Shown piece by piece: positions 28,285-52,052 of a stretch of DNA of 64,000 bases. Source of the DNA: an uncultured Methanosarcinales archaeon (lineage in GTDB: Archaea; Nanobdellota; Nanobdellia; Woesearchaeales; DATDXC01). Every line of letters begins with the position of its first letter. The first letter of the stretch is position 1. The notes under the pieces are model-generated. The model had not been told where the DNA came from. It was given only the letters and a program-made list of their open reading frames with translations, and did not search any database. The stretch lies in the NCBI GenBank assembly GCA_964510025.1, contig CAZDZV010000004.1:611-64610 (forward strand), written 5' to 3'. The translations under genes and the position numbers were made by a program.

Positions 28285-28285
28285 G

Positions 28286-29866: not shown

Positions 29867-29869
29867 AAA

Positions 29870-30928: not shown

Positions 30929-30932
30929 CTAT

Positions 30933-36997: not shown

Positions 36998-37489
36998 TTA
37001 TGGAACCTTTACGATCAATTCTCCAGCTGTAGACTTGTCAAAATCCTTTCCACCTGGGTCAATCGTATACTTCAAAGAGATTGTTGCTTGTACTTTTTCA
37101 TCATCGTCAGCTAGATCATCGCATGTTCCAATTGAACCATCACGATCGAAAACCACAGTGCCAACATCATTTGTTCCACCTGTTTTATCAAGTGACACCG
37201 CTCCCGCCTGTGCCAAGCAACTATTAGTGTCGTCTTTTATCTCTGAAGTATCCAAAATATCCACATCATCATTCAGGGTGTTCTTAATCTTCAAGCTAAG
37301 TGTACCTGTAGTAGCGCTCCATTTGTCACAAAACAATCCGCTCCCGGTTGGCAGCGTACATTTCTCAGGCAGCATCTCTGTCGGCTTGATGAAATACATC
37401 AATGCGCCTATGGCAATAAGCACAACTAAAATAGCCCAGCCATAGGTCATCAAGAATTCCATAGCAGCTTGTCCTTTTTTTATCATCAT
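36998..37489 (-). CDS. Archaeal type IV pilin-like protein with class III signal peptide
   Basis: 'MMIKKGQAAMEFLMTYGWAILVVLIAIGALMYF': basic leader, Q at +1, E at +5 (QAAMEF). Same 5' context 'aagaggtgaaaaaATG' as the upstream paralogue. The ORF track extends the N-terminus by 10 aa. Confidence 0.75.
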   Translation of the reverse strand: MMIKKGQAAMEFLMTYGWAILVVLIAIGALMYFIKPTEMLPEKCTLPTGSGLFCDKWSATTGTLSLKIKNTLNDDVDILDTSEIKDDTNSCLAQAGAVSLDKTGGTNDVGTVVFDRDGSIGTCDDLADDDEKVQATISLKYTIDPGGKDFDKSTAGELIVKVP

Positions 37490-37502
37490 TTTTTCACCTC
37501 TT

Positions 37503-38099
37503 TTATGGTATCTTAACAATCAGTTGACCTGCTGTGACCTTAGCGAACCCAACAAGTGAATCTGCATCTGCGCCTGCGCCACCGGGTGCGCTATCAGCCC
37601 CAAGAGAAATTTCATCTGTAAAATTCAAACTCACTTGCCCTTGTAATTTTTCGCCAGCAACTATAAGATCGGTAGCAGCACCATAGCAGGTGTCAGCTGC
37701 ATCTTCATCAGCAAGTCCATCCCTACCAAAAACAACTGTCGCTGTACCTTCTTTAGGCAATTGAACAGATACATCTGATGGGTTAGTATATCCCACTAGA
37801 TCTGAATCGACATTTGCATAGCACCTGTCCCCATCATCGTTTTCAATAAAAGACGTGGTTGATACATACAAAGGCTCAGTCATTGAGTTCTTAATCAATA
37901 AAGTAATCTCTGATCCAACTGAATCAGCGCCCCACTGTTCGCAAAATATTCCGCTTCCAGTTGGCAGCGTACATTTCTCTGGTATCATCTCAGTCGGCTT
38001 GATGAAATACATCAATGCGCCGATTGCAATTAAAACAACCAAGATTGCCCAGCCATAAGTCATCAAGAATTCCATAGCAGCTTGAGCTTTTCTTCTCAT
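37503..38099 (-). CDS. Archaeal type IV pilin-like protein with class III signal peptide (paralogue)
   Basis: 'MRRKAQAAMEFLMTYGWAILVVLIAIGALMYFIKPTEMIPEKCTLPTGSG'. The first ~45 aa are nearly identical to the neighbouring gene. C-terminal '...GQLIVKIP'. Confidence 0.8.
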   Translation of the reverse strand: MRRKAQAAMEFLMTYGWAILVVLIAIGALMYFIKPTEMIPEKCTLPTGSGIFCEQWGADSVGSEITLLIKNSMTEPLYVSTTSFIENDDGDRCYANVDSDLVGYTNPSDVSVQLPKEGTATVVFGRDGLADEDAADTCYGAATDLIVAGEKLQGQVSLNFTDEISLGADSAPGGAGADADSLVGFAKVTAGQLIVKIP

Positions 38100-38204: not shown

Positions 38205-41200
38205 TTATGTACCCCACCTCCAGACTCTCGCCTCGACAATAGTAGGCCCCCACATGAAAGGTATCCTGCCTATGCTTACTGTCTCGACATCCAGATCATT
38301 GGCTCCGAACTTCACAAACAGCAGTCCATCATCATCAAAATCAAGCTGGTCAAAAAGCCTGCATATGGCATTGTTTATGGCATCCTGATCATAGTCTGTA
38401 TCGCAGGAAGTGAAAGCGTTGAATGTGCAGTTTGCAGAGCTGTTATAGCTGTTAGGTATAGGCACATCAGCATATGTCCCATCCTCAAATCCAAGCGTCC
38501 AGATGCAGCCCTCTGCCTTTGCAAAGACGCCAGTGTAGTTCATGTCCATCCTTATCCCTATAGTATATATAGCCATGTCATCTGCAGAGCCGATTGATAC
38601 GTTATGGCTGCCCTGTGCTGTTGATATCCTGACAGTATTGTTCCCTGGTCCGAGCAGACCCACAGGGATATTAACTATATATGGGTCTCCCAGATAAGAG
38701 TACTCAACCCCGTAATCAGATATGTTATAGAATGTGTCCCATGCAGAGCCGTTCCACACAGATGCCCTGTCCGTCCATCTTTCTCCTGAATAGGATGTCA
38801 GCTTGGCATCATACAGCAGGACCTGGGGGGGCACTGTAAACGATCCCTGGGTTATATTGTTGCTGAACCTCGGGCTTTCGACGATCACAGGTATCCTTGC
38901 GTATTCAGTCTGGTTCAGCTCAAGGCTGTAGTTGAACTCGATGTATGAATCAGGATATAGCTCATTGCTCACGTTGCCTGTCACATTTGCTGTCTGGGCT
39001 GCAAACTGCAGCTCGATCATGTCGCTGGCTATCTGCCTGTAGATGTCCATCAGCTGCGCAGCATCATTGGCATCATAGGCATGGCTGCAGTCATCGCAGC
39101 ATGCTATATCGTCCATCAGGCCTGTATCTGCTCCAGAGCCGAAAGCCACCGAATATATCCTTATGCCGAACCTGTCAAAAGCATCGCATGCCTTCTGCAC
39201 AGCCTCGTCCTCTGCTCCGCTTAGGTCGTAGTTGCTCCTGGTGCCGATCCTTGTGTTGGCCTCTCCGTCGCTCATCACAAGCATGGACATGAACCTGTCA
39301 TAAGACAGCTCATCGTCGCTCCACTTCAGCGTAAGGTTGAGGTTCCTGAACCTCCAAAGGTCATTGTCGTCATCTGTGTGCAGGCAGCCTGTTGTTGTGC
39401 CGGAAAACAGCCTTATCTCAACATCTGAGCTGTTCAGCACCATCACCGGAACATCTAGCAGAACCTCCTGCCACTCATTGTCTCCTGACCATCTTTGGTA
39501 GTCGATCCTTCCTATATACTGTCCGTTTACGTAAACGCAATCATAAGAATCAGGATTGACATCCAGCGCCTCAAATCTCAGCAGTCCTGCCCTTATCTGG
39601 TCTGTGCCTATGCCTGTATTAAAGACCACGCTGGACGACTCTGCCCCGTCATCCAGCACGACAAGGCTTGGATCAGAAAAGCTTGAATCATGAATCTCCG
39701 AGCTATGCTCCCAGGCTATCAGCTCAACATGCTTCAGGTCCCAGTCATCCTGTTCCCCTGCTGTGTCAAAGCACCCGTTTACATTTGCTCCTGTGACAGT
39801 TATATTATTGGTGCCTGTGTTGGCAACGCTGTAATTTATCTTTACGCTTTCCAGCACCGGCGTCCTTGAGGTGTTTGCAGTTGAGAGGTTTGCCCTCCAC
39901 TGTATATATCTGGAATCTGCCTGGGCTATTGGCCCCGCATCATCATAGGCAGCGCTGCTCCATGCGAAATTATCCCACGAACCATCTGGAACAGCAACGT
40001 CTCCTGTCCTGATCTCAAGGTATATGCTTGTACCGGCTGGCAGCTCATTTTCCCAGCTTATGCTGCCCCAGTCAGCATCGCCCCCTGCATAGTATACCGG
40101 GCTCATTATCCAGCCGTCAGCTGAATATTCTGACGTGAGGTCCCCTTCCTCCATCTCTGGCCCAAAGCTGAGAAAGCTGTCATTCATCGAGAGGTATTGC
40201 GCAGCTATCCAGTCATCAGACCTCGCAGCGTTGGAAAGCCTGAGCTCATCTATCATTCCGTCAAGCTCCTCTTCCCCGCCTGTTCCGTCATGCATCCTGG
40301 TGTTCCCATAGCCTGCCCTGATGTCCCCTGAATGGGCATAGAGCCTCCTGCCTTCCCCAGCGCCAAATTCAGTTCCATCCAGGTATCCTTCAAAGCAGTC
40401 GCCGCAAAAATTATCAGTTCCGTCCCTGAGCCTCAGGGCCACATAATGCCATTCTCCTGTACCGATGCCTGTGCTGAGCCATGTGCCGTCCCAGTCGCTC
40501 TGCCCTGAATCCCTGTTCCATCCTCCAACATATGCATTTCCCGAGCTTAGGTATATATTCAGTCCTCTTGTGCCGCCTCCCTGCTCATATATGATATTCT
40601 TTGCACCTCCATCGATGGTGTCTGCCCTGAACAGCACCTCTATGGTCTTGTCATCCCATGGACCGCCATCGTTTATCTCATCGCTGTTGGCTATTGTGCT
40701 GTAGTCGTTGTTGCCATCATAATCGTAGGCTCCATCCACGATGCCTGAGCTAGAGCCCGGGCAGTTGCCGCATCCAAGATCATTGTTGAAGGAGCTGGAA
40801 TCCTGGTCATCATCCATATGGTACACCCCGATGAAATCATCATCCCATACAGCTGCAGCATCCTGGTCATCTGGTGCGCCGTTGTTGCCGTAGTATACCC
40901 ATATATAACCTGTATCAGAATAGCCGTCTATAGATGCCCTGACCCATACATATGAGCTCCCGCCTTCATCCCATTCCTCTATCTCATGGGCCAGCTGCGC
41001 TCCCTCGTCATCCACAAACCTTATGTCCTGTCCCATGTCCTGGGTTTCGCTGTAGTCTATCCTGGTGCTGTCCAGCCTCACAAGCACTGGAAAATCAGGC
41101 AACTCCCCTTGTCCTGAATTATCAAACGCTATCTTCCTCCTTTTCAGCCAGGCGCTGTCCCACCATGCGTCAGCCTGCTTCAGCACTGCGTCTCCGGGAG

Positions 41201-43082
41201 ATGCCATGACATCCACAAGGCTCTCTGAGCATGCCTGGAAATCTGCCTGGGAGCTTGTGCTCCATTCCCCATATGCAATCCCTGAACTTGGCAGCCACTC
41301 CTCTTTTATTGGATATGAGCATGTATGCCAGCCTGTGCTGTCGTCGTCGTTTGACTCGCACATGCGTCCGAGATAGTGGCCGTTAAGGAACACGCAGTCC
41401 CTGTAGCCATCCTCAACGTCAACGCCTCTGCCGAACAAGGTGAGCCGTGATTTGACAAAAGCGCTCTTGTTGACATCCAGGTTGAAGCTGATCTCTGCAG
41501 ACACAGGCCCTGTGTCCCCGAGATGCCTTGCTGTGCTGTCTGATTGCACCTTCATCTCGCTGCCATACAGCGCTCTTTTCTCAGTCAGCAGCTCTGCAGC
41601 TGTATTTATTCCGCACGATATGCATGTCCACCCGCACCATTCGTCGTAATAGTCATCGATCCTGGACTGCAATGAAGCGTTGTCCCCGGAAAAGGGATGG
41701 AAGGAGCAGACAGGACTGGTCCTTTTTCCGTAGCCTACCAGGCTCACCTCGTTGCCCGGGACGCTTAGCATCTCCTCCACGAATGTCTTGTCTGAACCCT
41801 GGGCAACCCTGTCTCTTCTCTCATGGCAGGGAGAAGATCCGTCGCATATTCCAGGCTCGCTGCAGTCTATATCAACATCGCATCCCCTCATAGAGCCGGT
41901 CCTGTCTGTTATCAGGACAGCATCTGATTTGCCGCCGTAAAAGAAAGTTATGTTCTCTATGCCCAGCCTTATGGGCACTGTTGCCTTGCTTATGGTGTTA
42001 TAGTCCAGCGCCGCTGAGAACACCGAATCGTTGACAAATACGCTTTGCGGCACTGTTGACGTGCTTGTCTCGAACACAGTAACATTGCCCACTGTGAAAT
42101 ACACAGGAGTATTGGACATGAAGTGAAGGAACATGTTGATATTGTTGACCATGCCAGGTATGTAGAAGGAATCATAGATGTTTATGATGCCGTCGATGCC
42201 CGGAAAGAAATATCGTTTCCTGGTTATGTTGTTATAGGCGCCGAGCTCTGATGTCTGGAACTTCAGCTTGAAATATCCTCCTCCGATATATGCATCCTTT
42301 GTAGAGTTGAACGAAAAGAGCATGATGTTGTCTCCCGCGTCAAAATTCGATAGGTAGCTCTCGTTGATCACCCATTTGTCAGCTGTTAGGTTGTGGGGAG
42401 CTGGGCTGGGAGAGACAGCGTAGCTGCCTGAGAAGTTGCCGTTCACATACAGCTCAAAGCTCGAGCCTGCATCCAGCTCCATATACCCATAGTCGATAGA
42501 TGTCAGGGATATAGGGAGCGACAGTATGCCTGTAATGTTCCCCTCTCCGATATATCCTCCGAAATACAGGTAAGCTGCAGAGGTCCGCTCATTTATTTCA
42601 GAAAGGAACACCCTGGATGTCAGGCCTTCCACAGCCCTGTCTTTCTCCATGCCGGTGACCATCTGCTTGGAGGAAATAAGCTGCGTGACAGGCCTGTCTG
42701 TCGATGTGAAGATCGGGTCATCATACCCTTCCACCCAGATGCCGATGCTGTAATCATTGGGTATCAGGGAGCCGATCGTAAGGTTTAAGAGCTGCCTTGC
42801 CTTCTGCTCGCTTCCCTCTATCTGGAACCTCAGGATCTGCTCGACCACTGTCCTGTTGAAATCTGTTACGTTCGTGTTGTTCAGGAAAGCTGCAATATCT
42901 GCATCATCAAACTCGCGCAGCTCCATATCAGAAAGCAGCTGTATCATGTCAGAGGAATAATATACCGCAGAGGTGGTGTCCTGCGCCCTGAGATAGAACA
43001 TGGGCATGAGGATTATCACCACTATTATGAGCATGACTGCGATAAGTGCATCTAGACTAAATAGTATCCCGTTTCTGCCCAT
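38205..43082 (-). CDS. Giant surface adhesin-like protein (1625 aa): pilin-like N-terminal anchor, VWA MIDAS site, LamG-like domain
   Basis: N-terminus 'MGRNGILFSLDALIAVMLIIVVII' (G-1, hydrophobic helix, D+6). MIDAS-like 'VLITDRTGSM'. Laminin_G_3-like 'WHYVALRL...EGYLDG...DELRLSNAARSDDWIAAQY'. Later VWA-like 'LVMSDGEAN...IRIYSVAFGSGADTGL'. Asp-rich stretches and many N-x-S/T sequons. N- and C-terminal ~150 aa are homologous to the second giant gene. Confidence 0.75.
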   Translation of the reverse strand: MGRNGILFSLDALIAVMLIIVVIILMPMFYLRAQDTTSAVYYSSDMIQLLSDMELREFDDADIAAFLNNTNVTDFNRTVVEQILRFQIEGSEQKARQLLNLTIGSLIPNDYSIGIWVEGYDDPIFTSTDRPVTQLISSKQMVTGMEKDRAVEGLTSRVFLSEINERTSAAYLYFGGYIGEGNITGILSLPISLTSIDYGYMELDAGSSFELYVNGNFSGSYAVSPSPAPHNLTADKWVINESYLSNFDAGDNIMLFSFNSTKDAYIGGGYFKLKFQTSELGAYNNITRKRYFFPGIDGIINIYDSFYIPGMVNNINMFLHFMSNTPVYFTVGNVTVFETSTSTVPQSVFVNDSVFSAALDYNTISKATVPIRLGIENITFFYGGKSDAVLITDRTGSMRGCDVDIDCSEPGICDGSSPCHERRDRVAQGSDKTFVEEMLSVPGNEVSLVGYGKRTSPVCSFHPFSGDNASLQSRIDDYYDEWCGWTCISCGINTAAELLTEKRALYGSEMKVQSDSTARHLGDTGPVSAEISFNLDVNKSAFVKSRLTLFGRGVDVEDGYRDCVFLNGHYLGRMCESNDDDSTGWHTCSYPIKEEWLPSSGIAYGEWSTSSQADFQACSESLVDVMASPGDAVLKQADAWWDSAWLKRRKIAFDNSGQGELPDFPVLVRLDSTRIDYSETQDMGQDIRFVDDEGAQLAHEIEEWDEGGSSYVWVRASIDGYSDTGYIWVYYGNNGAPDDQDAAAVWDDDFIGVYHMDDDQDSSSFNNDLGCGNCPGSSSGIVDGAYDYDGNNDYSTIANSDEINDGGPWDDKTIEVLFRADTIDGGAKNIIYEQGGGTRGLNIYLSSGNAYVGGWNRDSGQSDWDGTWLSTGIGTGEWHYVALRLRDGTDNFCGDCFEGYLDGTEFGAGEGRRLYAHSGDIRAGYGNTRMHDGTGGEEELDGMIDELRLSNAARSDDWIAAQYLSMNDSFLSFGPEMEEGDLTSEYSADGWIMSPVYYAGGDADWGSISWENELPAGTSIYLEIRTGDVAVPDGSWDNFAWSSAAYDDAGPIAQADSRYIQWRANLSTANTSRTPVLESVKINYSVANTGTNNITVTGANVNGCFDTAGEQDDWDLKHVELIAWEHSSEIHDSSFSDPSLVVLDDGAESSSVVFNTGIGTDQIRAGLLRFEALDVNPDSYDCVYVNGQYIGRIDYQRWSGDNEWQEVLLDVPVMVLNSSDVEIRLFSGTTTGCLHTDDDNDLWRFRNLNLTLKWSDDELSYDRFMSMLVMSDGEANTRIGTRSNYDLSGAEDEAVQKACDAFDRFGIRIYSVAFGSGADTGLMDDIACCDDCSHAYDANDAAQLMDIYRQIASDMIELQFAAQTANVTGNVSNELYPDSYIEFNYSLELNQTEYARIPVIVESPRFSNNITQGSFTVPPQVLLYDAKLTSYSGERWTDRASVWNGSAWDTFYNISDYGVEYSYLGDPYIVNIPVGLLGPGNNTVRISTAQGSHNVSIGSADDMAIYTIGIRMDMNYTGVFAKAEGCIWTLGFEDGTYADVPIPNSYNSSANCTFNAFTSCDTDYDQDAINNAICRLFDQLDFDDDGLLFVKFGANDLDVETVSIGRIPFMWGPTIVEARVWRWGT

Positions 43083-43092
43083 CTAGCACCTC

Positions 43093-44043
43093 TCATATCT
43101 CCCAGTTCAGTAAGGTCAGGTTATACCTTTCAAGATGGCCTGAATCCAGCTTTACCCAGTCAGGCGTGAAGTTGATCCTGTAGTCTCCGTCTCCAGAATC
43201 TGTCCAGTAATGATAGTCTATTATGCTGCTGTCCCCATGGACGCTGAGCCCCTGTTCGCTTACTTTTATCAGGTTGACCATGCTCTCTATGCCGCAGCAG
43301 CCTGAGCTTGTCAGGTTGTTCTCGAATCTCATCAGGAAGCTCGGTGCATCCCCGCTGTCCACATAATATGAGTTCTCGATGTGCTCCATCAGGTTGCTGA
43401 CGTTCCATTTAACCTTCTTGAAGGTATAGTTGCCTTGATAGGGTGTTGCATTTATGACATTGGTTATCCTGCCAAGGCTGTAGACGATATACAGGGGATC
43501 CTCAAAGCTGTTGATCTTTATCTGGGACTCTATCTGCTGCTCCCTTCTCCAGGATGCGATGCCTGCCGTGTCATCTATGTAAAAAGAGATATTTGTCCAT
43601 ACGACCACATGCCACGGGTCTGTCTGGAAGATATCTGTTTCATGAAGCACCATGCTGACATTTATCTTCAGCTTGTTGGATTCCAGCCTAATATTCTCGA
43701 GCCATTGGGGCAGAGTAGAGCCTATCATCAGGGTGGAATTGGTGCTGTTCACTGTCCCGTACAGCAGGGCTTCCATGAACATCTCCTCAGTATTGTTCAG
43801 GAACTTCCCTTCCCTTATGATATACTCCTCCAGGGCCATCAGCGCCCTGTATGAGCTGATATATATTCCTCTCTCGACGTCCCTCTCAAGGTCCTTGACA
43901 AAATCATTCATCGAGTCTACTCTCATCTCTATCACAGACATCCTCTCGTTTATCCTTTTGTAGCTCGGCATCATGAACACAAAAAGGAAAACAAAAAGGA
44001 AAGCTATCGTCATCAAAGTGAAATACATGCCTTTTTTTTTCAT
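43093..44043 (-). CDS. Membrane-anchored pilin-like/secreted protein (316 aa)
   Basis: N-terminus 'MKKKGMYFTLMTIAFLFVFLFVF' (basic leader + G + hydrophobic helix) with an N-x-S/T-rich ectodomain. Start set at the Met overlapping the upstream stop. Confidence 0.5.
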   Translation of the reverse strand: MKKKGMYFTLMTIAFLFVFLFVFMMPSYKRINERMSVIEMRVDSMNDFVKDLERDVERGIYISSYRALMALEEYIIREGKFLNNTEEMFMEALLYGTVNSTNSTLMIGSTLPQWLENIRLESNKLKINVSMVLHETDIFQTDPWHVVVWTNISFYIDDTAGIASWRREQQIESQIKINSFEDPLYIVYSLGRITNVINATPYQGNYTFKKVKWNVSNLMEHIENSYYVDSGDAPSFLMRFENNLTSSGCCGIESMVNLIKVSEQGLSVHGDSSIIDYHYWTDSGDGDYRINFTPDWVKLDSGHLERYNLTLLNWEI

Positions 44044-47000
44044 CTCCACACCCTCGCCTCCACAACTGTGGGCCCCCACATGAAAGGTATCTTGCCTATG
44101 CTTACTGTCTCGACATCCAGGTCTGAGGGCCCGAATTTTGCAAACAATCTGCCGTCATCGTCAAAGTCAAGCTGCTGGAAGAGCCTGCACATAGCGTCAT
44201 TGACAGCGTCATCCTTGAATTCTGCGCCGCAGTCAGTGCTATCTGTAAAATTGCAGTCCTTTGTGCCGTTGTAGCTAGCTGGTATCATCATGCTTATGTT
44301 TTGGCCGTCCTCGAACATAAGGCTCCAGTTGCATCCCTCTGCCTTGGAAAACACCCCTGAATAGCTCAGGTTTATCTTTATGCCGAGCGTATAGATGGCC
44401 CTGTCAGCAGGGCTTCCGCCAACCCATTCCACTGCGCCTGAGCCGGTCTGTATCCATACTTGATTTTCTCCCTCATGGGTATAGCTCACAGGGATGCTTA
44501 TTATGAATGGGTCGCCTAGAGCATGGTAGTCATAGGACATCTCAGAAAGGTTGAATATATCTATGTAGCCTGTATCCAGCAGCCCCAGATAGCTTGCCCA
44601 CCTGTCGTCTGAATATGATGTTACTTTTGCCTCGAGCAGCTTTGATTCAGATGGTACAAAGAAGCTTCCCTTTGTCTGGTTATTGTTGAATCTCGGAGTC
44701 TCCAGAGTCAAAGGTATCACTGAATAGTCCAGTGATTCATCTATATCCTGATAGACAAACTCTATATAGGATCCCCTTCTTATGACAGAGCTAACGTTGG
44801 ATGAAAGGCTCAGGTTTATCACCTGGGATTCATAGGCAATCTCATAGGCTATAGTGCTGTATATCAGGGCAAGGTCCTCAGCGTTTGAGCCCTTGTAGAA
44901 CTTGCCGTTCGAGACGTTCGCTATCTTCGCTAAAGTGGACGAGCCTGCGTCGCTGCCGAAGCCTTTCGTATATATTGTTATATCGTATTCCTTGGAGATG
45001 TTCTCCGAGAGGTTGATCGCCTCCTCGATGGCCGCTTCTCCGCATTCAGAGCCGTCCAGGCACACATTGGCCTCCCCATCAGTCATCAGCACGATGTATC
45101 TTTTCTCGGCAGTTCCGTTGTTGATGAGTATAGAAGCGCTTCTTTCTATAGCGCACGATAGGCATGTAAGCCCGCTATCTGCATGATATCCCTCGATCTC
45201 CTCATAAAGCATGGTGCGGTTAAGGCTGAGATTGGTGGCGCTGGTGACGCCTGTGCCGTACCTTACAAGCCCAAGCTGGACCTTGTCGCCCAGGATTATC
45301 TCGTCGACGAATTCCCGGTCAAGCTTCTTTGCCAGCCTGATCCTGACAGAATCGCAGATATAGCAGCTCCCGTTTTCAGCTATGCACATCTCGCCCGAGC
45401 ATCCATATCTCTCGCCTATAGGCTCAGACAGGCCGGGGATGCATTGCTCTGTGTTTTCCGTAGCACCCTTGCAGTGGTCTTCTGTGTCACAGCAGGCATT
45501 GCTTGTATCTGTAGAGCAAAGGATCGCCCCGCAGCAATAGTCCATATATGTATAGCATCTTGTCTCAGTGCAGCATCTGACCTCTTCCTGCTCGCATTCA
45601 TATTCAAGCGTTGTCTCATCGCAGCAGCACAGTCCGGAGCACAGGCTGCATTCGCTGCAGCTGACATAGCCCGGATCGCATGAGGCTTCCTCTGTGCAGT
45701 AGAAGGCTCCGTATCTTGTCTGGCCAGTATAGCATTCTGATGCAAGGCATGTGGGATTGAGGGGGTCTCCTGGATCATATGGCCTCCAGCTGATATCATT
45801 GAATATTGGATAGTATATTTCCTCTCCAGGCAGGCATTCATCTGGCGCGCCGCAAAATGGCTTATCCCTGTATACGCAGTTGCAGTAGTAGGCATTCCAG
45901 TCTTTTTCAGACGCGTTGCAGCTGCCTATGCCCGGCCTGCATAGACTGAACGATGTGACGCTATTGCCGTTCTCATCATATCCATAGATCAGCCCAAGAT
46001 TATCGCATATCCTGTCCCCGTAGCTGTCCCTCTGGTACCAGGCACAGTCCTTATACTCATGGAAGCACTGTCCGTCCGGGCAAAACCCAGCAGGGCATGC
46101 TGCTGCACCGCATTCAACAAGCGTGTCATAGCTGAGGCTTCCGTTGGAATAAGGATGAGATGGCGGACAGTCTGTGCTGCAGTTGTCCATCCATAGGCAC
46201 TCTCTGTCGCTGTATACTATTTTTTCAAAATCAGGTGCATCAAAAAAAGCCTCAGGCGCATAAGCCTCGTCTGCCACAGGCCTCTCTGGTGGGCAGTGCG
46301 ATGTCTCGTACCTGCACCAGTCAGGCATATCACCTATGCCGTCATCAGGGCAGCTTGACTGGTTAAGGGCCATAGCATGAGACATTATCTCTCTGTCTGT
46401 CAGTATCCTTTTGTGTATAGCCAGCTCATCCATGCTTGCCCTAAGCTGGCAGCAGCTCTCACTGTACCTGTATCCGATATAGAGCATCTTCCCTATCTGG
46501 ATGGTTCTTCCTCCCCCTGTACCGACCATATGGCCGTCTACATATATCTGGGATTCTGTCTTATTTACAGTAACGGCAATATGCTGCCATTTATCATTTT
46601 TCAGATAAGCTGACGGTGATTGCACCCGAGCATACCAGCAGATGTTTCCTTGTTCAGGGCAGTTGCTGGAAACATAATCCTGCAGGTACCACCAGTTGCC
46701 GTCAGCTCTGGCGTCGAGCAGGTATTGGGATCCCTGGTTCCAGTCTGCTTTTCTCATCCAGAACTCTATTGTCATCGCTTCTGGATCGCCCAGGTCATCC
46801 TCTATCCTTATGAATTGTGAGCCTGTGAATTCTGCAGAGCTGCCGATGACGCCCGTGTCAAGGCCCAGGGCCCCTGAGACATTGACAGTTCTGTTCCATC
46901 CTGATGAGTCCTGCAGCGGCATGCTGTCGAAATGCAGCAACAGCAATGTGTCCTGGTCCGGCCTGATCTCCCTTGAATCCATGCACTCCCTCATGCTGTT

Positions 47001-48227
47001 CGAGGTGTCTGTCACCAGAACAACATCAGATGTCGAGATATTTTTTTCAGCAAGCCCGAACCTGAATGGTATGGTCTTCTTTGACATTTCTGTGTAGTTA
47101 AGCAGATTGGACAGGGTATAGTTGGATATTGTTCTCTGGATAGTGCCGACTCCGGTGTGCTGGTAGACAGTGGTATTGCCTATATTAAAGAAAGTTGACA
47201 CGCTGGCAGCCGGGTTTACTGCATAATCCAGGTAGACCTTCATGGATTTCAGCAGCCCCTGGACAAAAAAGGAAGAATAAAGGTTTATAACCCCGTCTAT
47301 CTCTGGCAGCCAAAAGGTCTCAGTTATGATGTTCCCCCCCTCATATCCGCCGTAGCTGATGCAGCTGCCGTAGCCCCCGCAAATTATCTCATACTTGTCA
47401 TAGAGGTTGGAGGTTGTGTATCCTACCCTTATGAATCCTCCCCCTATGTAAGCATCCTGGATATCATGGAAAGCTACTGTTACATAGTTATCTCCTGCAT
47501 GGAAAAAGCTTGTGTTGGCCTCGATGATGGTTGGTATGGCCTCGGCAGTCTGATTTGTGGCATTAAACCTTCCCACAAATGCGTTGTTCACGAAAAGGTC
47601 AAAATCCTGGACCACCCTCATCTCTATATAGAACGAGTTCACGCTGCTTATCTCCCACGGCAGCACGATCTTTTTGGTGATATTGCCGTTGCCCACGTAT
47701 CCGCCGAAGTACGAATAGACTGCAGATATCTTCTCATCCAGCTCAGACAGGAATACCCTTGAGGTGAATCCCTCGATAGCCTTTTCCCTTTCTATGCCTG
47801 ACACCAGGGCCTTGGCTGAGATGAGCTGCCTCACCCTGCCCAGGGTGTTGTTGAAAACAGGATCATCATATCCCTCTACCCAGAAGCCGAAGTTGACCCG
47901 GCCAGGTATAACATCCCTGGTCGTCAGGTTCATCAGCTTTTCAGCTCTTTCATGATCTCCAGCTACCTTGAATCTCAGCACCTGCTCCATGATCGTCCTG
48001 TTGTAGTCAGTGACATTGCTGTTGTTAAGAAGCTCCCTGACAGCAGCATCATCTATCTCGCCTACCTTTATCTTTGACAGGGACTGCACGATATCGCTTG
48101 AAAAATACATTATCTGGGGATCCTCTTCCTGCTTCACATAAAACATCGGTATTATCACCAGTACAGATATTATGAGCACTGTGGCGATCGTTGCATCAAT
48201 GCTGAAAAAAACACCTCTCTTCACCAT
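44040..48227 (-). CDS. Giant surface adhesin-like protein (1395 aa), paralogue with extreme Cys-rich insert
   Basis: 'MVKRGVFFSIDATIATVLIISVLVII' N-terminus. MIDAS-like 'VVLVTDTSNSM'. LamG-like 'WQHIAVTV...IYVDGHMVG...MDELAIHKRILTDREI'. ~330 aa segment with more than 60 Cys. VWA-like 'IVLMTDGEAN...ITIYTKGFGSDAGSS'. C-terminus '...DFDDDGRLFAKFGPSDLDVETVSIGKIPFMWGPTVVEARVWR' matches the first giant. Confidence 0.75.
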   Translation of the reverse strand: MVKRGVFFSIDATIATVLIISVLVIIPMFYVKQEEDPQIMYFSSDIVQSLSKIKVGEIDDAAVRELLNNSNVTDYNRTIMEQVLRFKVAGDHERAEKLMNLTTRDVIPGRVNFGFWVEGYDDPVFNNTLGRVRQLISAKALVSGIEREKAIEGFTSRVFLSELDEKISAVYSYFGGYVGNGNITKKIVLPWEISSVNSFYIEMRVVQDFDLFVNNAFVGRFNATNQTAEAIPTIIEANTSFFHAGDNYVTVAFHDIQDAYIGGGFIRVGYTTSNLYDKYEIICGGYGSCISYGGYEGGNIITETFWLPEIDGVINLYSSFFVQGLLKSMKVYLDYAVNPAASVSTFFNIGNTTVYQHTGVGTIQRTISNYTLSNLLNYTEMSKKTIPFRFGLAEKNISTSDVVLVTDTSNSMRECMDSREIRPDQDTLLLLHFDSMPLQDSSGWNRTVNVSGALGLDTGVIGSSAEFTGSQFIRIEDDLGDPEAMTIEFWMRKADWNQGSQYLLDARADGNWWYLQDYVSSNCPEQGNICWYARVQSPSAYLKNDKWQHIAVTVNKTESQIYVDGHMVGTGGGRTIQIGKMLYIGYRYSESCCQLRASMDELAIHKRILTDREIMSHAMALNQSSCPDDGIGDMPDWCRYETSHCPPERPVADEAYAPEAFFDAPDFEKIVYSDRECLWMDNCSTDCPPSHPYSNGSLSYDTLVECGAAACPAGFCPDGQCFHEYKDCAWYQRDSYGDRICDNLGLIYGYDENGNSVTSFSLCRPGIGSCNASEKDWNAYYCNCVYRDKPFCGAPDECLPGEEIYYPIFNDISWRPYDPGDPLNPTCLASECYTGQTRYGAFYCTEEASCDPGYVSCSECSLCSGLCCCDETTLEYECEQEEVRCCTETRCYTYMDYCCGAILCSTDTSNACCDTEDHCKGATENTEQCIPGLSEPIGERYGCSGEMCIAENGSCYICDSVRIRLAKKLDREFVDEIILGDKVQLGLVRYGTGVTSATNLSLNRTMLYEEIEGYHADSGLTCLSCAIERSASILINNGTAEKRYIVLMTDGEANVCLDGSECGEAAIEEAINLSENISKEYDITIYTKGFGSDAGSSTLAKIANVSNGKFYKGSNAEDLALIYSTIAYEIAYESQVINLSLSSNVSSVIRRGSYIEFVYQDIDESLDYSVIPLTLETPRFNNNQTKGSFFVPSESKLLEAKVTSYSDDRWASYLGLLDTGYIDIFNLSEMSYDYHALGDPFIISIPVSYTHEGENQVWIQTGSGAVEWVGGSPADRAIYTLGIKINLSYSGVFSKAEGCNWSLMFEDGQNISMMIPASYNGTKDCNFTDSTDCGAEFKDDAVNDAMCRLFQQLDFDDDGRLFAKFGPSDLDVETVSIGKIPFMWGPTVVEARVWR

Positions 48228-48724
48228 ACATACAGCACCAGTCTTATTATCTGTGAGTCGTAGTTGACAAACCTCAGGATCTTGATGAGCTGCTCGGGAT
48301 CTGAATCCTTGTAGTTAGCGCCGATCTCATCCACTCCATCTATGTTCACTGTATTATTGTCCTTATCTTCAAATGTGACGTAGTAGTTCCTGTCTGTCGA
48401 AAGGAGCAGCCTCGACCTGTCATAATCAGCCAGTGCGATATTGTTGAAGTTGCCCACCTTGTTGGCATCCAGGTCCATGCTTCCGTTTGTAAGCCCGATT
48501 ATCACCGCATTTCCTGGTTCCCAGTCTGCGGGATAGCCGCTTGAAACGAGATAGTTTGATACAAGCTTTGCATCGATCAGCAGGTTATCCATGCCCTGTT
48601 CCTTTACATCAAGTGCAGAGGTGCTGTACTGATAGAAGATATAGATGCCTACAGAGAATATCAGCAGCGCTATAGCGATGTCAGCTCCCCACATCTGCGC
48701 TTTAGTTGATGTATATCGTTCCAT
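48221..48724 (-). CDS. Pilin-like protein (167 aa) with N-terminal hydrophobic helix
   Basis: 'MERYTSTKAQMWGADIAIALLIFSVGIYIF' has class-III-like A-1/Q+1 with D at +6. Overlaps both neighbouring genes. Confidence 0.5.
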   Translation of the reverse strand: MERYTSTKAQMWGADIAIALLIFSVGIYIFYQYSTSALDVKEQGMDNLLIDAKLVSNYLVSSGYPADWEPGNAVIIGLTNGSMDLDANKVGNFNNIALADYDRSRLLLSTDRNYYVTFEDKDNNTVNIDGVDEIGANYKDSDPEQLIKILRFVNYDSQIIRLVLYVW

Positions 48725-49079
48725 TTGTCTTGTTTATTATGTTTATGCCCTTGGTGATGGTCCCGGTGACATTAGGTATCTCTTTCCAGAAATCCTGGTT
48801 GTCGGCATGGATGATCACATATTTTCCTTCTATGGATATTGAATAGTTCTTGGTAAGCAGCTTCTCAGGCAGAGTGAATTCCCTGACATAGCCGTCTACG
48901 ACCCTTGCGGCCAGATTTACCTCTTTCTGTATCTTGCTTACCACAGAATCCGCAACCAACAGGAACTTGTTCCTGTTCACTACAGTTGTGTTGTATGCCA
49001 CTGCTCCCATCACAATGGCAAATATGAATAGCATGCCTCCCACAAGAAGCATGAATTCCGTTGATGCCTGCGACTTCAT
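48702..49079 (-). CDS. Archaeal type IV pilin-like protein, class III signal peptide
   Basis: 'MKSQASTEFMLLVGGMLFIFAIVMGAVA': Q+1, E+5, then a hydrophobic helix. Confidence 0.7.
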   Translation of the reverse strand: MKSQASTEFMLLVGGMLFIFAIVMGAVAYNTTVVNRNKFLLVADSVVSKIQKEVNLAARVVDGYVREFTLPEKLLTKNYSISIEGKYVIIHADNQDFWKEIPNVTGTITKGINIINKTNGTIYIN

Positions 49080-49492
49080 GTTGAGTTTATGAATACATAT
49101 CCCTCGTTCGCTTCTACGCTTACATATTGGTATCCCTCTGATGTTTTTATGCTGCCCTTCAAAGGGATAGGAGACAAATAGAAGATATCAGATTCGCCCA
49201 TCCTTGTCTGTACCTTGAAGGATATCTCATAGGCGACATCAGTCGGATCTGCAGGATCAAGGCTATTGAGGTTCACTGAATTTACCCCGCCCGGCATGTA
49301 TATCTTGATGGTGGTTTTGGTCGGCGCGCCGTAGTAGTAGATGGATTCAGCAGTATCGACGATCTCCTTGGATATCTGGTCTATCTGGTTTGTATTTATC
49401 GTGCCTCTGACCTCAGACGAATAATGAGAGGATACAGCTATTATCGACAGAGCTATGAAAGTGGCCACTCCAACAACAAGCACGTATTCCAA
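49076..49492 (-). CDS. Pilin-like protein; annotated TTG start probably too short (upstream in-frame '...RLGQVGLEY' gives a class III signal)
   Basis: From the TTG: 'LEYVLVVGVATFIALSIIAVS'. The in-frame upstream codons read 'ISREIRLGQ|VGLEYVLVV' (Q+1/E+5) with no ATG or GTG. A possible ATT start lies 7 nt after SD 'AAGAGGTG' at ~49528. Confidence 0.55.
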   Translation of the reverse strand: MEYVLVVGVATFIALSIIAVSSHYSSEVRGTINTNQIDQISKEIVDTAESIYYYGAPTKTTIKIYMPGGVNSVNLNSLDPADPTDVAYEISFKVQTRMGESDIFYLSPIPLKGSIKTSEGYQYVSVEANEGYVFINST

Positions 49493-49690
49493 GCCTACCT
49501 GTCCCAGCCTTATTTCTCGAGAAATTCCTATACACCTCTTGGTGGAATATATAAATTACTACTATATAAATTTAATCATATTCTCTCATCCAGCATCCGG
49601 AATATAGTCACTATCTCAGAATTAATACATAGCTTTAAAAAACAAATAGGCAGATAGTATAATTGGGTAGTGGTCAATATAGAATTTAGA
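49493..49690. promoter_or_regulatory. Divergent promoter region between the pilin/adhesin operon (-) and the assembly-machinery operon (+)
   Basis: AT-rich. Duplicated 'atataaatt' boxes ('gaatatataaattactactatataaattt') and SD-like elements facing both ways. Confidence 0.3.
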
Positions 49691-50536
49691 ATGGATGAGA
49701 AAAATATATCCGAAACTGAAAAAGAGCTGATAGGATACATACAAAAGCTGCTTTCTGAAAACCATACTAAGGATGATATCAAAAAAGCATTGCTGGAAGT
49801 GGGATGGCCGGAAGACTATGTAGCATCTATCCTTGAAAACACCGAAAAGCCGCTGATGCAGCCTGCTGATTCTGCGCCAGCTGACCTAAAGACCTATGAG
49901 ACAGAATTTGATAAGATAGTGGATCTGGCAAAAGAAAAAGGGAGCATAAAGGTATCAGCTCTGGCAAAGCATCTGGGAGCAGACAAGAAAAATATCGAGG
50001 AGTGGGCCACTATCCTTGAAGAGCACAACCTTGTTAAGATATATTACCCGCTGATTGGCGAAGCAGAGGTAAGAAAGACAGACTATAAGCCGCCGAAAAA
50101 GCCGAAAAGGCAGCCAAAGAAGGATAAGCCAAAGAAGGATAAGCCAAAAAAGACAGCAAACAGGCCTCTTTGTGTCTCGATAATAGCTGTCCTGTTTTTC
50201 ATCTCAGGCGGCTTTAGCCTTATTTACAGCCTTTTCCTGATGATACAGGGCGGGATGGGAGCTGCTTCAGCAAGCGCAGTGCCTATCGGCGGCCCGATCA
50301 TAGCAGAGATGATTAAGGGATTCTACATCTTCATAGTATTTATCCAGGTATTGGTTGGCGCCTTTTCGATCCTCATAGGGTTGGGCTTATGGAACCTGAA
50401 GAACTGGGCAAGGATAACCGCTATAGTCCTTCACGCCATAGGTATGCTGACCATAATAATGATACCGATATCCATTCTGATCATATATCTTCTTTCGAAA
50501 AAAAGCACCAAGCAGGCATTCATGGAAGTGAGATAA
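49691..50536 (+). CDS. Membrane protein with cytoplasmic winged-helix-like N-domain, Lys/Pro repeat linker and 4 TM helices
   Basis: 'KGSIKVSALAKHLGADKKNIEEWATILEEHNLVKIYYPLIGEAEV' looks wHTH-like. Linker 'KPPKKPKRQPKKDKPKKDKPKK'. C-terminal half is hydrophobic. An alternative GTG start lies at 49670. Confidence 0.5.
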   Translation: MDEKNISETEKELIGYIQKLLSENHTKDDIKKALLEVGWPEDYVASILENTEKPLMQPADSAPADLKTYETEFDKIVDLAKEKGSIKVSALAKHLGADKKNIEEWATILEEHNLVKIYYPLIGEAEVRKTDYKPPKKPKRQPKKDKPKKDKPKKTANRPLCVSIIAVLFFISGGFSLIYSLFLMIQGGMGAASASAVPIGGPIIAEMIKGFYIFIVFIQVLVGAFSILIGLGLWNLKNWARITAIVLHAIGMLTIIMIPISILIIYLLSKKSTKQAFMEVR

Positions 50537-50537
50537 G

Positions 50538-52052
50538 GTGGAAGAGATAGACAGGTATGAGGTAACTGCCGATGAGATAAAGGCAGAAGTCCGCATACTT
50601 GGCGGAAAAGGCATCATGAACACATACAACCTCATAGTGCCAACTGTCAGCAAGCCCACGATGGCACTCATAGAAGAGCTGAAGCAGGAGCTTATCATGA
50701 ACGTGAAGGTCAGCGCTGCTGAGATCCTGGATCCGAAGATCATGAACAAGCTTAAGCAGAAGTTCAAGGAAGAGTCCCAGCAGATGCTTAAGAAAAAGGT
50801 GCCCACCTTGGATGAGGACGCAAGAAATTTCCTGGTTGGCATCCTTCTTCATGACATGCTTGGCTTCGGCAAGACAGAATTTCTCCTGAATGATGGCGAC
50901 CTGGAGGAGATCATCATCAATTCCGCAACAGAGCCCGTGAGGGTGTACCATAAGAAGTTCGGCTGGCTGGAGACCAACATAAGCATCGAATCCGAAGACA
51001 AGATACAGAACTTCAGCAACATGATCGCAAGAAGGGTAGGAAGGCAGATCAACACCCTTAATCCCCTGCTTGACGCCCATCTGATCACAGGAGACAGGGC
51101 CAATGCTGTCTTTTACCCTATAGCAAACAAAGGGAATACTATTACCATCAGAAAATTTGCCAGGGACCCCTGGACTGTAACTGACTTCATAACGAACAGG
51201 ACATCAAATGCAGATATCTTTGCGCTTATCTGGCTCGCCATGCAGTATGAGATGAACATAATAATCAGCGGAGGCACAGGCTCGGGAAAGACAAGCTTGC
51301 TGAACGTTTGCATGCCGTTTATCCCGCCAAACCAGAGGATCATAAGCATTGAGGATACAAGGGAGCTGCAGCTTCCTAAGTTCCTTTACTGGTGCCCTCT
51401 GACGACAAGGCAGCCTAATCCTGAGGGAAAAGGCGAGGTTACTATGCTTGATCTGCTCGTAAATTCGTTAAGGATGAGGCCAGACAGGATCATACTTGGA
51501 GAGATAAGGAGGAAGACAGAGGCCCAGGTCCTTTTCGAGGCAATGCACACCGGCCACAGCGTCTATGCCACCATACACGCGGATTCCACAAAAGAGACCA
51601 TACAGAGGCTTATAAATCCGCCTATCAGCGTTCCCAAGAATCTGCTCTCAGCCGTAAACCTGAACGTGGTCATGTTCAGGGAAAGGAGAAGGACATTGAG
51701 AAGGGTCTACCAGGTCGGCGAATTCGTTGTAGGCGAAGAGGCCCAGAACATATCGGTCAAGCAGAATGTGCTTTTCAGGTGGAAGCCTTCCAACGATAGC
51801 ATTGTCCAGCATTCGCCGTCGGTCAGGATCTACGAGGACCTGAGCAGGCACACCGGTCTCTCAGAATCAGAGATAAAGAAAGATCTGGAAGGAAAGAAGA
51901 AGGTGCTGAGCTACATGGTGAAAAATAAGATCCGAAGCCTGAATGAGGTGGGCAAGGTGATGAAGGATTTCTACCTGGACCCCAATGGAGTTGTTGATGC
52001 TGTGGAGAAGAATGTTCACCCTGAAAAGATATTAGGTAGTCACGATGTTTAA
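50538..52052 (+). CDS. Type II/IV secretion-family assembly ATPase (FlaI/PilB/GspE/VirB11-like)
   Basis: Walker A 'IIISGGTGSGKTSLLN', Asp box 'RPDRIILGEIRR', His box 'MHTGHSVYATIHAD'. GTG start. Confidence 0.85.
   Translation: MEEIDRYEVTADEIKAEVRILGGKGIMNTYNLIVPTVSKPTMALIEELKQELIMNVKVSAAEILDPKIMNKLKQKFKEESQQMLKKKVPTLDEDARNFLVGILLHDMLGFGKTEFLLNDGDLEEIIINSATEPVRVYHKKFGWLETNISIESEDKIQNFSNMIARRVGRQINTLNPLLDAHLITGDRANAVFYPIANKGNTITIRKFARDPWTVTDFITNRTSNADIFALIWLAMQYEMNIIISGGTGSGKTSLLNVCMPFIPPNQRIISIEDTRELQLPKFLYWCPLTTRQPNPEGKGEVTMLDLLVNSLRMRPDRIILGEIRRKTEAQVLFEAMHTGHSVYATIHADSTKETIQRLINPPISVPKNLLSAVNLNVVMFRERRRTLRRVYQVGEFVVGEEAQNISVKQNVLFRWKPSNDSIVQHSPSVRIYEDLSRHTGLSESEIKKDLEGKKKVLSYMVKNKIRSLNEVGKVMKDFYLDPNGVVDAVEKNVHPEKILGSHDV

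Follow-up and report, generated by a model that had tools for sequence, protein, structure and literature searches.

How can one adhesion domain be encoded in pieces that lie hundreds of residues apart, and what might a protein built in this way do on an archaeal pilus? The question is raised by two giant proteins with prepilin-like N-termini and a von Willebrand factor A (VWA) domain, encoded in a 64,000-nucleotide (nt) window (the whole stretch of contig CAZDZV010000004.1 that was analyzed, to which all positions refer). Both predicted open reading frames (ORFs) are intact and lie on the minus strand:

38205..43082, minus strand: giant 1, 1625 amino acids (aa); extra VWA modular pilin-like paralog, after the pilin-like gene p316.
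44040..48227, minus strand: giant 2, 1395 aa; modular pilin-like protein with VWA, occupying the canonical module slot.

Giant 2 is 100% identical to database protein P0001. The giants had been described as paralogous, and BLASTP agrees, with 40% identity across residues 1-415 and 44% in the final ~360 aa. Sequence comparison identifies them as divergent paralogs within a DPANN-wide modular pilin-like family, encoded here in a minor-pilin operon, and indicates a family core of ~850 aa that consists of a leader and helix, a helical/β-sandwich N-domain, one VWA domain with a MIDAS (an adhesion site that depends on a metal ion), and a β-rich C-domain. In both giants a large insert interrupts the VWA domain. 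This feature is real and well supported, and the central idea, a nested insert in a pilin-like VWA protein, holds.

The VWA domain is split rather than duplicated, as evidenced by colinear profile matches, contiguous relatives, and the confidence of structure prediction. A database search with giant 2 as query returned 38 proteins, which together with giant 1 make up the 39 family sequences used for conservation counts. In compact relatives the VWA domain is contiguous, and 18 compact members were used to build a family profile of 866 positions that was run against both giants with hmmsearch. In giant 1, profile positions 3-500 match residues 3-503 and positions 499-866 match residues 1258-1622; in giant 2, positions 1-400 match residues 1-420 and positions 402-866 match residues 941-1395. 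Both matches are colinear, and in each giant the two profile pieces are non-overlapping and no profile positions are lost. The VWA pieces fall as follows:

46968..47036, minus strand: giant 2 VWA piece 1, residues 398-420; strand β1 and MIDAS D407-x-S409-x-S411-M.
44823..45407, minus strand: giant 2 VWA piece 2, residues 941-1135; α1 to α6, with T1021 and D1050.
41574..41933, minus strand: giant 1 VWA piece 1, residues 384-503; β1, D393-x-T395-x-S397, a short Cys-containing loop, α1-α3, and T486.
39003..39311, minus strand: giant 1 VWA piece 2, residues 1258 to ~1360; β4 with D1272, and α4-α6.

The D-x-T/S-x-S motif noted near residue ~390 of both proteins belongs to a complete five-residue MIDAS in each (D393/T395/S397, T486, and D1272 in giant 1; D407/S409/S411, T1021, and D1050 in giant 2). 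All five positions are kept in 37-39 of the 39 relatives. In the numbering of the compact relative P0006, the invariant or near-invariant positions of the compact profile are D387, S389, S391, M392, T470, D500, and G501 in the VWA domain, together with D11 near the N-terminus and the C-terminal WGP...W.

The two giants are not split at the same place. The initial annotation had assigned both the order MIDAS, laminin G (LamG) domain, second VWA half; the split around a nested insert stands, and the uniform layout fits giant 2 only, since the insertion falls at profile positions 400/402 in giant 2 and at 499/500 in giant 1. All that follows DxSxSM in giant 2 is shifted by 520 aa. Giant 1 keeps α1-α3 and the MIDAS Thr in place (398-503), and only β4 onward (from 1258) has moved. 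In BLASTP, residues 391-553 of giant 1 pair with residues 933-1089 of giant 2; thus the early VWA elements directly follow the MIDAS motif in giant 1 and lie more than 500 residues downstream in giant 2. The Pfam VWA model (gathering cut-off, 23.8 bits) responds in the same manner. It matches giant 1 at residues 1288-1349 with 24.5 bits over profile positions 118-173, the C-terminal third only, and giant 2 at residues 979-1121 with 33.5 bits over positions 34-170, so that only β1 and the loop with DxSxS fall outside the distal match in giant 2. VWA_2 is a further match of giant 2 (31.1 against a cut-off of 27).

Structure prediction is consistent with a single fold. An AlphaFold2 (AF2) model of giant 2 residues 370-1140, made with a trimmed family alignment, assigns a strand to segment residues 31-38 (giant 2 residues 400-407). 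The mean predicted local distance difference test (pLDDT) value is 95 for segment residues 31-40 (β1 and the MIDAS loop) and ranges from 83 to 98 for residues 959-1135; it is <50 for the insert, where the alignment is without depth. The β1 strand of giant 2 is isolated in sequence and still confident, and its packing into the distal half is the best explanation that the model offers. Foldseek matches the giant 2 VWA domain to VWA structures including PilB (7b7p) and Mfa5 (6tnj), and the structural matches include the pilus adhesins PilB, Mfa5, RrgA, SpaC, GBS104, and PitA. Taken together, the colinear pieces, the giant 2 model, and an AF2 model of P0006 argue for one VWA domain around an insert in place of two degenerate ones, and the separated pieces are predicted to form a single α/β Rossmann-like VWA fold.

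The P0006 model (mean pLDDT 85) supplies the order of VWA elements and locates the insertions. Strand β1 (380-387) is followed by the MIDAS loop and a small hairpin at 395-408 (site A); next come α1, β2, β3, α2, T470, α3 (472-486), and a loop (site B); then β4 (492-499), D500, a further loop (site C), and α4 and the rest. Breaks in the family cluster at profile positions ~400-415, 497-502, and 523. Site A lies just after DxSxSM, where many members have Cys-rich loops of 30-130 aa and giant 2, P0023, and P0025 have large inserts of 520-910 aa. Site B (profile 497-502) is the most frequent site of large inserts, used in 12 of 39 sequences including giant 1. Site C lies just after the TDG motif. 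In the doubly wound VWA fold, loops after strands lie on the MIDAS face and loops after helices on the opposite face. By this topology, sites A and C would flank the metal site and site B would lie on the far side of the domain.

The inserts themselves differ between the giants:

45408..46967, minus strand: giant 2 nested insert, residues 421-940 (520 aa); Laminin_G_3, then a Cys-rich region.
46386-46826, minus strand: giant 2 Laminin_G_3, residues 468-614; Pfam E = 3e-18.
39312..41573, minus strand: giant 1 nested insert, residues 504-1257 (754 aa); a frame around DUF2341 and Laminin_G_3.
40797-41033, minus strand: giant 1 DUF2341, residues 684-762; Pfam.
40203-40718, minus strand: giant 1 Laminin_G_3, residues 789-960; Pfam E = 9e-11.

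The Laminin_G_3-like domain predicted in both giants is therefore found in both by Pfam. A suggested CARDB domain is found in neither, and BLAST self-comparison detects no internal repeats in either protein. The insert of giant 1 sits between α3 and β4, and that of giant 2 right after DxSxSM in the β1-α1 loop. Most of the 58 Cys residues of giant 2 (~47) fall within residues 500-1000. Between the two inserts BLAST finds only a marginal LamG-LamG similarity (E = 0.04). A common insert that was translocated to another loop in one of the giants was rejected, as no homology extends beyond this match.

The inserts behave as exchangeable, lectin-like cassettes, as suggested by their varied concanavalin A (ConA)-like contents and by a shared frame with a different center. 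The frame of the giant 1 insert (its first 134 and last 274 aa) is 41-44% identical to the insert of P0004, in which a 3-keto-disaccharide-hydrolase/GH59-lectin-like (ConA-like) domain replaces DUF2341 and Laminin_G_3 at the center. In relatives, the inserts at site A or B contain MAM, Laminin_G_3, 3keto-disac_hyd, or GH59_C lectin domains, all ConA-like β-sandwiches; the insert of P0005 has only a weak DUF4215 match. DUF2341 is optional, as it is absent from giant 2 and from compact members.

The N-termini of both giants resemble class III signals. Giant 1 begins MGRNG/ILFSLDALIAVMLIIVVIILMPMFYL and giant 2 MVKRG/VFFSIDATIATVLIISVLVIIPMFYV (the slash follows the Gly), each with a basic leader, a Gly, ~26 hydrophobic residues, and Asp at +6. 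The family consensus is KKG/xFFSxDA, and Asp11, the residue at +6 after the Gly, is kept in 37 of 39 members. In giant 2 this region is:

48135..48227, minus strand: giant 2 leader and hydrophobic helix, residues 1-31; MVKRG, includes Asp11.

The AF2 model of P0006 places a helix at residues 3-31, the equivalent of the N-terminal helix of giant 2. The prepilin-like N-terminus first recognized in the giants is borne out by these class-III-like sequences, the conservation of Asp11, and the modeled helix; an ordinary signal peptide is not what is seen. After its 29-residue helix the P0006 model has a low-confidence break and then a helical bundle.

At the other end of the chain, a conserved domain is recognized by BLASTP and the family profile:

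44043..44822, minus strand: giant 2 C-terminal domain, residues 1136-1395; conserved, β-rich, ends WGP...RVW.
38208..39002, minus strand: giant 1 C-terminal domain; conserved, β-rich.

This domain is 44% identical between the giants, is β-rich in the P0006 model (residues 601-850), has the invariants W839/G840/P841/W849 in family numbering, and matches no Pfam family. It closes with an invariant family motif, P-x-(L/M)-W-G-P-x3-E-x-R-V-W, at residues ~1610-1622 of giant 1 (38217-38255) and ~1383-1395 of giant 2 (44043-44081). The motif might act as a strand through which the protein contacts a partner, for example p316.

The giants also have the composition of surface proteins. Giant 1 contains 34 N-x-S/T sequons against 13.9 expected from composition-preserving shuffles of the same protein (z score, 5.9), and giant 2 contains 36 against 10.4 (z = 8.9), consistent with the very high sequon density originally noted. 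The cytoplasmic proteins of the window have ≤1 sequon per 100 aa, with z ~0. The sequons of giant 1 are almost entirely outside the insert and those of giant 2 are more evenly spread. This enrichment (z 5.9-8.9) and the Cys-rich insert of giant 2 point to an extracellular location. A role as an intracellular regulatory vWA protein of the ArnB type (a role discussed in PMC4858521) was rejected on account of the export signal, the sequons, and the Cys-rich insert.

The family is widespread and has gone largely unnamed. Named sources of the 38 retrieved proteins are Woesearchaeota, Nanoarchaeota, and Aenigmatarchaeota; most of these relatives have 820-940 aa and a contiguous VWA domain (the basic family form, put at ~850-940 aa), and their sole source name is "VWA domain-containing protein". 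A scan of GTDB species-representative genomes, one genome per species, with the family alignment as query confirmed 377 loci; giant 2 alone as query drew no relatives. Eighty of the 377 loci were retrieved for synteny counts, many of them cut by contig ends. Almost all are from DPANN metagenome-assembled genomes (Woese-, Pace-, Aenigmat-, Nano-, Parv-, Nanohal-, and Altiarchaeota), and those titled "uncultured Methanosarcinales" or "Methanobacteriota" are presumed to be mislabeled. An exhaustive profile search returned at least 931 cluster representatives at E ≤ 1e-30, and 71 of the best 150 representatives are longer than 1000 aa. The literature searched, including work on vWA proteins of DPANN archaea, contained no description of the family, its five-gene module, or its insertion hot spots.

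Giant 1 is the odd member of the pair. Its core is 53.8% identical to that of P0004 and 48.9% to that of P0005, both site-B proteins of other organisms, and 41.6% to that of giant 2. In the P0005 locus (L056) the site-B protein fills the canonical VWA slot. The closer relationship to P0004 and P0005 indicates that giant 1 is an added copy and not half of a duplicated pair; judged by sequence, this copy either diverged anciently or was acquired horizontally. Recent tandem duplication of the giants was rejected, as their cores are only 41.6% identical.

Both giants are embedded in an operon of pilin-like genes, whose order on the minus strand is p138 - p125 - p167 - giant 2 - p316 - giant 1 - p198 - p173. 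Every operon protein starts with a class-III-type N-terminus. The four small genes around giant 2 are:

49076..49492, minus strand: p138, minor-pilin-like, first module gene; in 54/80 loci; motif [KR][GAS]/Q-x-S-x-EY.
48702..49079, minus strand: p125, minor-pilin-like; MKSQ/ASTEF, Glu at +5; in 55/80 loci; motif K[SA]/Q-x-A-x-EF.
48221..48724, minus strand: p167, minor-pilin-like; KAQ/MWGAD, Asp at +6; in 51/80 loci; motif K[SA]/Q-x-W-x-x-D.
43093..44043, minus strand: p316, pilin-like, last module gene; MKKKG/MYFTL; in 74/80 loci; motif KKG/MYFT.

The module order p138-p125-p167-VWA-p316 recurs in related loci with a single VWA gene. In 74 of the 80 loci, which come from at least seven DPANN lineages, p316 lies directly downstream of the VWA gene, and no further gene of the VWA family occurs within 10 kb in any of the 80. 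The junctions are tight: p138 and p125 overlap by 4 nt, p125 and p167 by 23 nt, the p167 stop overlaps the giant 2 start by 7 nt (ATGGTGA), and the p316 ATG overlaps the giant 2 stop by 4 nt (ATGA). Between p316 and giant 1 there is a 10-nt gap, a spacer that contains GAGGTG before the ATG, and 105 nt separate giant 1 from p198. For p125, Pfam gives a weak DUF7266 match. The p316 protein has 11 sequons (z = 5.1) and no acidic residue at +5 or +6. GspK-type tip pilins are likewise without the conserved Glu, and p316 may, speculatively and by this analogy, be the outermost subunit.

The start of p138 deserves separate mention. Its motif RLG/QVGLEY is encoded upstream of the listed TTG (49492), within 49490-49558 on the minus strand, and the real start is probably upstream of the listed one, at least to 49507. 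No ATG, GTG, or TTG occurs between the in-frame stop (49558-49556) and the motif, only ATA (49531, 49513) and ATT (49525), which points to an error in the sequence or to a start codon of non-canonical type.

Gene order bears on a different account of the locus, in which both giants share one layout (MIDAS half, LamG, second half) and each forms a duplicated unit, coupled to a priming pilin of its own. The account draws on the MIDAS near residue 400, the LamG domain, and the distal 'TDGEAN' element of both giants, and a pilin-like gene does precede each. Closer inspection leaves it hardly credible. The split positions differ (profile 400 in giant 2, 499 in giant 1), the inserts share no homology beyond the weak LamG match, and the cores are too divergent (41.6%). 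The overlapping stop and start described for both pilin-giant pairs exists at 48221-48724 and does not exist at 43093-44043, for p316 lies 10 nt from giant 1 and overlaps giant 2 instead. Moreover, p167 and p316 belong to unrelated families with fixed positions in a single-copy, single-VWA module of five genes, to which giant 1 is an extra; the proposed pairing of a priming pilin with each adhesin is accordingly abandoned.

Downstream of giant 1 the operon ends with two candidate filament subunits:

37503..38099, minus strand: p198, candidate major pilin; MRRKAQ/AAMEFLMTYGWAILVV; homologs in 38/80 loci.
36998..37519, minus strand: p173, second candidate major pilin; KKGQ/AAMEFLMTYGWAILVV.

The start of p173 is probably the ATG near 37489. 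Like p138 and p125, both proteins have Gln at +1 and Glu at +5. Their shared N-terminal motif is K[AG]/QAAMEFLMTYGWAILVV. The mature N-terminus QAAMEFLMTYGWAILVV of these candidate major pilins (36998-38099) is almost invariant across distant DPANN lineages (L002-L076), a conservation far above what is usual for pilins. Immediately beyond the pilin genes, on their downstream side, 36747-36965 (minus strand) encodes a 72-aa ORF that has a poly-Lys tail and two predicted transmembrane (TM) segments. By tblastn, only 3 of the 80 loci have it at this place, including the two closest Woesearchaeota loci (L002 and L003).

On the divergent strand, the assembly machinery begins close to the operon:

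49670..50536, plus strand: p288, winged helix-turn-helix-like with C-terminal multi-TM region; divergent, heads the machinery operon.
50538..52052, plus strand: type IV filament assembly ATPase; Pfam T2SSE 1e-36.
52045-52938, plus strand: T2SSF platform gene 1, single-domain, TadB/TadC-like; Pfam T2SSF 5e-16.
52941-53912, plus strand: T2SSF platform gene 2, single-domain, TadB/TadC-like; Pfam T2SSF 3e-15.
53933-54649, plus strand: KaiC/FlaH-like ATPase; Pfam PF06745 4e-59.
54664-55842, plus strand: CBS-KaiC ATPase; Pfam PF06745 2e-27, CBS 3e-20.

The T2SSE gene and the two T2SSF genes lie at a distance of 1.4-5.7 kb. In related loci the ATPase is linked in 52 of 80 and each platform gene in 48 of 80; the KaiC-like ATPases are present in 21-23. 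The best NCBIfam similarities of the ATPase are to FlaI and then to the TadA family, both below cut-offs. The p288 protein, which has a weak MarR match at residues 83-122 and a Lys/Pro-rich linker, is encoded beside the ATPase in 41 of 80 loci and could be a membrane-tethered regulator or assembly factor. Two platform genes are a hallmark of Epd-like and Tad systems (PMC6668835). By its gene content (ATPase, two platforms, KaiC/FlaH-like ATPase, Gln+1 pilins) the locus fits the description of Epd-like or 'system 1' loci (PMC6668835, PMC4858521, bioRxiv 10.64898/2026.04.22.720090). The early comparison of the giants with pilus-tip adhesins holds in this setting, where a minor-pilin operon neighbors genes for the assembly ATPase (T2SSE), both T2SSF platform proteins, and the KaiC-like ATPases.

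What, then, do the giants do? With moderate confidence, they are taken to be glycosylated pilus-tip adhesins with swappable lectin cassettes, acting as modular minor pilins of an Epd/Tad-like locus. The starting points are observations: the anatomy of the giants, their colinear split, the conservation of MIDAS and N-terminus, synteny, and sequon enrichment. A possible pathway involves several steps: 1) a prepilin peptidase would cut after the Gly of the VWA protein, 2) through its N-terminal helix the protein would join p138, p125, p167, and p316 in a priming complex, 3) this complex would end up at the tip of a p198/p173 filament, and 4) the VWA protein, presumably heavily N-glycosylated, would bind a ligand on a host cell or surface via a MIDAS-bound cation. 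The inserted lectin-like cassettes may add or tune glycan or protein specificity, and their exchange at a few permissive loops would diversify the family. Two paralogs would widen the ligand range of the organism.

Several points weigh against this proposal. The acidic residue of the VWA family is an Asp at +6, shared with p167, rather than the usual pilin Glu at +5. The eight operon proteins match no pilin or class-III-signal model in Pfam (E up to 0.1) or NCBIfam (E up to 0.01), and NCBIfam assigns none of them to a family. The P0006 model displays no obvious canonical pilin α/β fold. A prepilin peptidase, including the EppA type with nine TM segments, was not found among the window ORFs scanned; it may be encoded elsewhere in the genome. 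A subunit of 1400-1600 aa may be hard to pass through a surface layer (S-layer). The insert of giant 1 would lie opposite the MIDAS face and need not shape MIDAS specificity. The packing of giant 2 β1 is read from pLDDT and a DSSP strand assignment and is not seen directly, and a role at the tip is deduced from sequences and models.

Some of these points suit a second explanation, in which the VWA protein is a cell-surface adhesin outside any filament and the class-III-type N-terminus serves only for export and for anchoring in the membrane or envelope, so that the cell body would be decorated with it. The proteins are very large, and no canonical pilin fold is evident past the N-terminal helix of P0006. 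Archaea also have class III signal proteins that are not known as filament subunits, the sugar-binding proteins of the Sulfolobus bindosome (bioRxiv 10.64898/2026.04.22.720090), although a type IV-like assembly system is needed for the bindosome as well. Strict linkage to a pilus ATPase, platform genes, and four small pilin-like genes across DPANN lineages makes a location outside the filament improbable, as does the near-invariant acidic residue in the N-terminal helix, which is typical of filament-core subunits.

The adhesin proposal invites comparison with known tip proteins. PilY1/PilC of type IVa pili is a large vWA protein encoded with about four minor pilins; it has a presumed role in priming assembly and a presumed place at the tip, and it has been implicated in adhesion and mechanosensing. 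PilY1 itself is no pilin: its N-terminus is of the Sec type, and a β-propeller lies at its C-terminus. The giants are similar in being large vWA proteins encoded with a minor-pilin set and differ in their own pilin-like N-terminus and in the lack of any PilY1/PilC domain by Pfam. A second group of vWA/MIDAS tip adhesins includes the sortase-assembled RrgA, SpaC, GBS104, and PitA and the type V protein Mfa5, in which loop 'arms' surround the MIDAS; nesting of one domain in another is the rule in vWA tip adhesins and integrins. These adhesins and the integrin I-domains share with the giants a MIDAS adhesion domain and nested insertions. However, the assembly of the tip adhesins is unrelated, their arms are short and not multi-domain cassettes, and they have no pilin-like N-terminus.

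Streptococcus sanguinis PilB comes closer in several respects. It is a solved pilin-vWA protein, shown experimentally to be an adhesin, with two 'arms' that flank the MIDAS, and its partner PilC is a pilin with a ConA-like lectin module (PMC8179133). As in the giants, a functional module is placed on a pilin-type N-terminus, and vWA and ConA-like lectin modules are both used; PilB is among the best sequence and structure matches. In the giants, however, the lectin-like domain is nested inside the VWA domain of the same chain and is not carried by a second pilin. They are also 3-4 times larger, have no bacterial N-methylation motif, and, judging from the P0006 model, have no recognizable small pilin module after the N-terminal helix. 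Modular pilins have been surveyed in print with bacterial signatures only.

The most similar layout is found in Tad pili. CpaL, the Caulobacter orthologue of TadG, is a predicted minor pilin whose vWA domain is made of stretches 148-203 and 384-626 with a β-rich domain between them, and it is predicted to sit at the tip of the Tad pilus with two minor pilins (PMC12607857). Both TadG/CpaL and the giants thus fuse a prepilin-like leader and hydrophobic helix to a vWA domain with a full MIDAS and an interrupted chain, and both are encoded with a TadA-like ATPase and two single-domain platform genes. Differences are equally clear. The giants have no Tad_N (PF13400) or TadE (PF07811) match in Pfam at E up to 0.1, have Asp at +6, and carry extra conserved N- and C-domains of ~350 and 260 aa; their inserts are far larger (520-754 aa, and as much as ~900 aa in relatives), lectin-like, and in other loop positions than that of CpaL. 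The locus also differs from Tad loci in its archaeal context, the lack of a secretin, and a KaiC-like ATPase instead of TadZ. A common origin of TadG/CpaL and the DPANN family is plausible in view of the Epd-like ancestry inferred for Tad pili, the likeness being known from the vWA domain and from descriptions of the layout. The architecture is less novel than had been implied. A pilin-like protein with a split vWA domain has a precedent in CpaL/TadG (PMC12607857), and modular pilins that carry a vWA or a ConA-like lectin module have one in S. sanguinis (PMC8179133). What is known already is the pilin and split-vWA design in bacteria; what is different here is the use of large lectin-like cassettes at alternative VWA loops.

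CpaL also lends weight to a third explanation, in which the VWA protein acts, in the manner of TadG/CpaL or PilY1, in priming, anchoring, or mechanosensing, and ligand binding is secondary. It would chiefly nucleate the pilus together with the minor pilins and afterwards serve as a plug, an anchor, or a tension sensor at the base or tip. CpaL has the same pilin-like, split-vWA layout and affects piliation and surface sensing, not simply adhesion (PMC12607857), and TadG has been proposed as a pilus anchor in work cited in PMC4858521. The gene for the VWA protein shares a conserved module with four minor-pilin-like genes, and the N- and C-domains of the protein are conserved far beyond the need of mere adhesin display. 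On the other hand, the variable lectin-like cassettes exchanged among relatives suggest selection on recognition of an external ligand, and a second divergent paralog in the genome points in the same direction. A role of this kind with binding relegated to second place is unlikely, and priming or sensing is not mutually exclusive with adhesion.

Among archaea, large adhesins with DUF2341, a domain also present in giant 1, are predicted at the pilus tip in clade 1 loci with two TadC-like genes (Makarova et al., PMC4858521), and methanogens as well as some DPANN are reported to have system 1 (bioRxiv 10.64898/2026.04.22.720090). Neither paper mentions the nested-insert vWA-pilin family or the five-gene module, and a term search of the latter finds no occurrence of 'vWA' or 'Willebrand'.

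If the giants are tip adhesins, the consequences extend beyond this locus. The VWA pilin and its module offer a concrete, widely conserved candidate for the means by which DPANN archaea attach to hosts or surfaces; microscopy has revealed pili where ultra-small prokaryotes touch host cells (He et al., cited in PMC9938205). The family occurs in hundreds of DPANN species under no other annotation than "VWA domain-containing protein". Variable cassettes predict that the type of insert tracks host or habitat, and the adhesin proposal predicts that mutation of the MIDAS or the insert abolishes binding and not piliation. The giants are, in addition, an extreme natural case of domain-in-domain insertion at alternative loops of one fold. 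A wider suggestion, offered tentatively, is that the VWA pilin and its four-gene minor-pilin module form a general DPANN device for recognition of hosts or surfaces that is reprogrammed by cassette swaps, and that it is the archaeal counterpart, possibly the ancestor, of TadG/CpaL. A genome with two divergent paralogs would then recognize two classes of ligand. An archaeal Epd-like system is the inferred ancestor of Tad systems (PMC6668835); the VWA-pilin family may link bacterial TadG/CpaL to this origin, and a pilin-vWA tip protein would already have been present in the Epd-like system that was transferred to Bacteria.

Other genes of the window include a further candidate for the cell surface. 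A 1026-aa ORF with a TTG start (57354-60434, plus strand) has 12 sequons (z = 3.0) and 18 Cys residues, matches nothing in Pfam or NCBIfam, and may be another surface protein near the pilus locus. Between it and the machinery operon, directly downstream of the two KaiC-like ATPase genes, a gene for a small retropepsin-like 'Zn_protease' (PF05618) overlaps a gene for a RimK-type ATP-grasp ligase (55880-57315, plus strand); the two look like a RimK/RimB-like peptide-modification pair. An apparent operon at 8303-11579 (minus strand) encodes an ABC ATPase, a MacB/FtsX-type permease, and a 397-aa CARDB/NPCBM_assoc protein. The last of these (10386-11579) has the sole CARDB domain among the window ORFs scanned and is unrelated to the giants. 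In positions 1-35703 the gene content is unusually rich for a DPANN genome. It includes biotin carboxylase, biotin carboxyl carrier protein (BCCP), and carboxyltransferase, as well as aspartate kinase, homoserine dehydrogenase, and aspartate-semialdehyde dehydrogenase. Several ORFs of 420-480 aa in the 19134-34643 region (plus strand) have no Pfam match, and they lie within a long cluster of sugar kinases, an epimerase, and GFO-type oxidoreductases.

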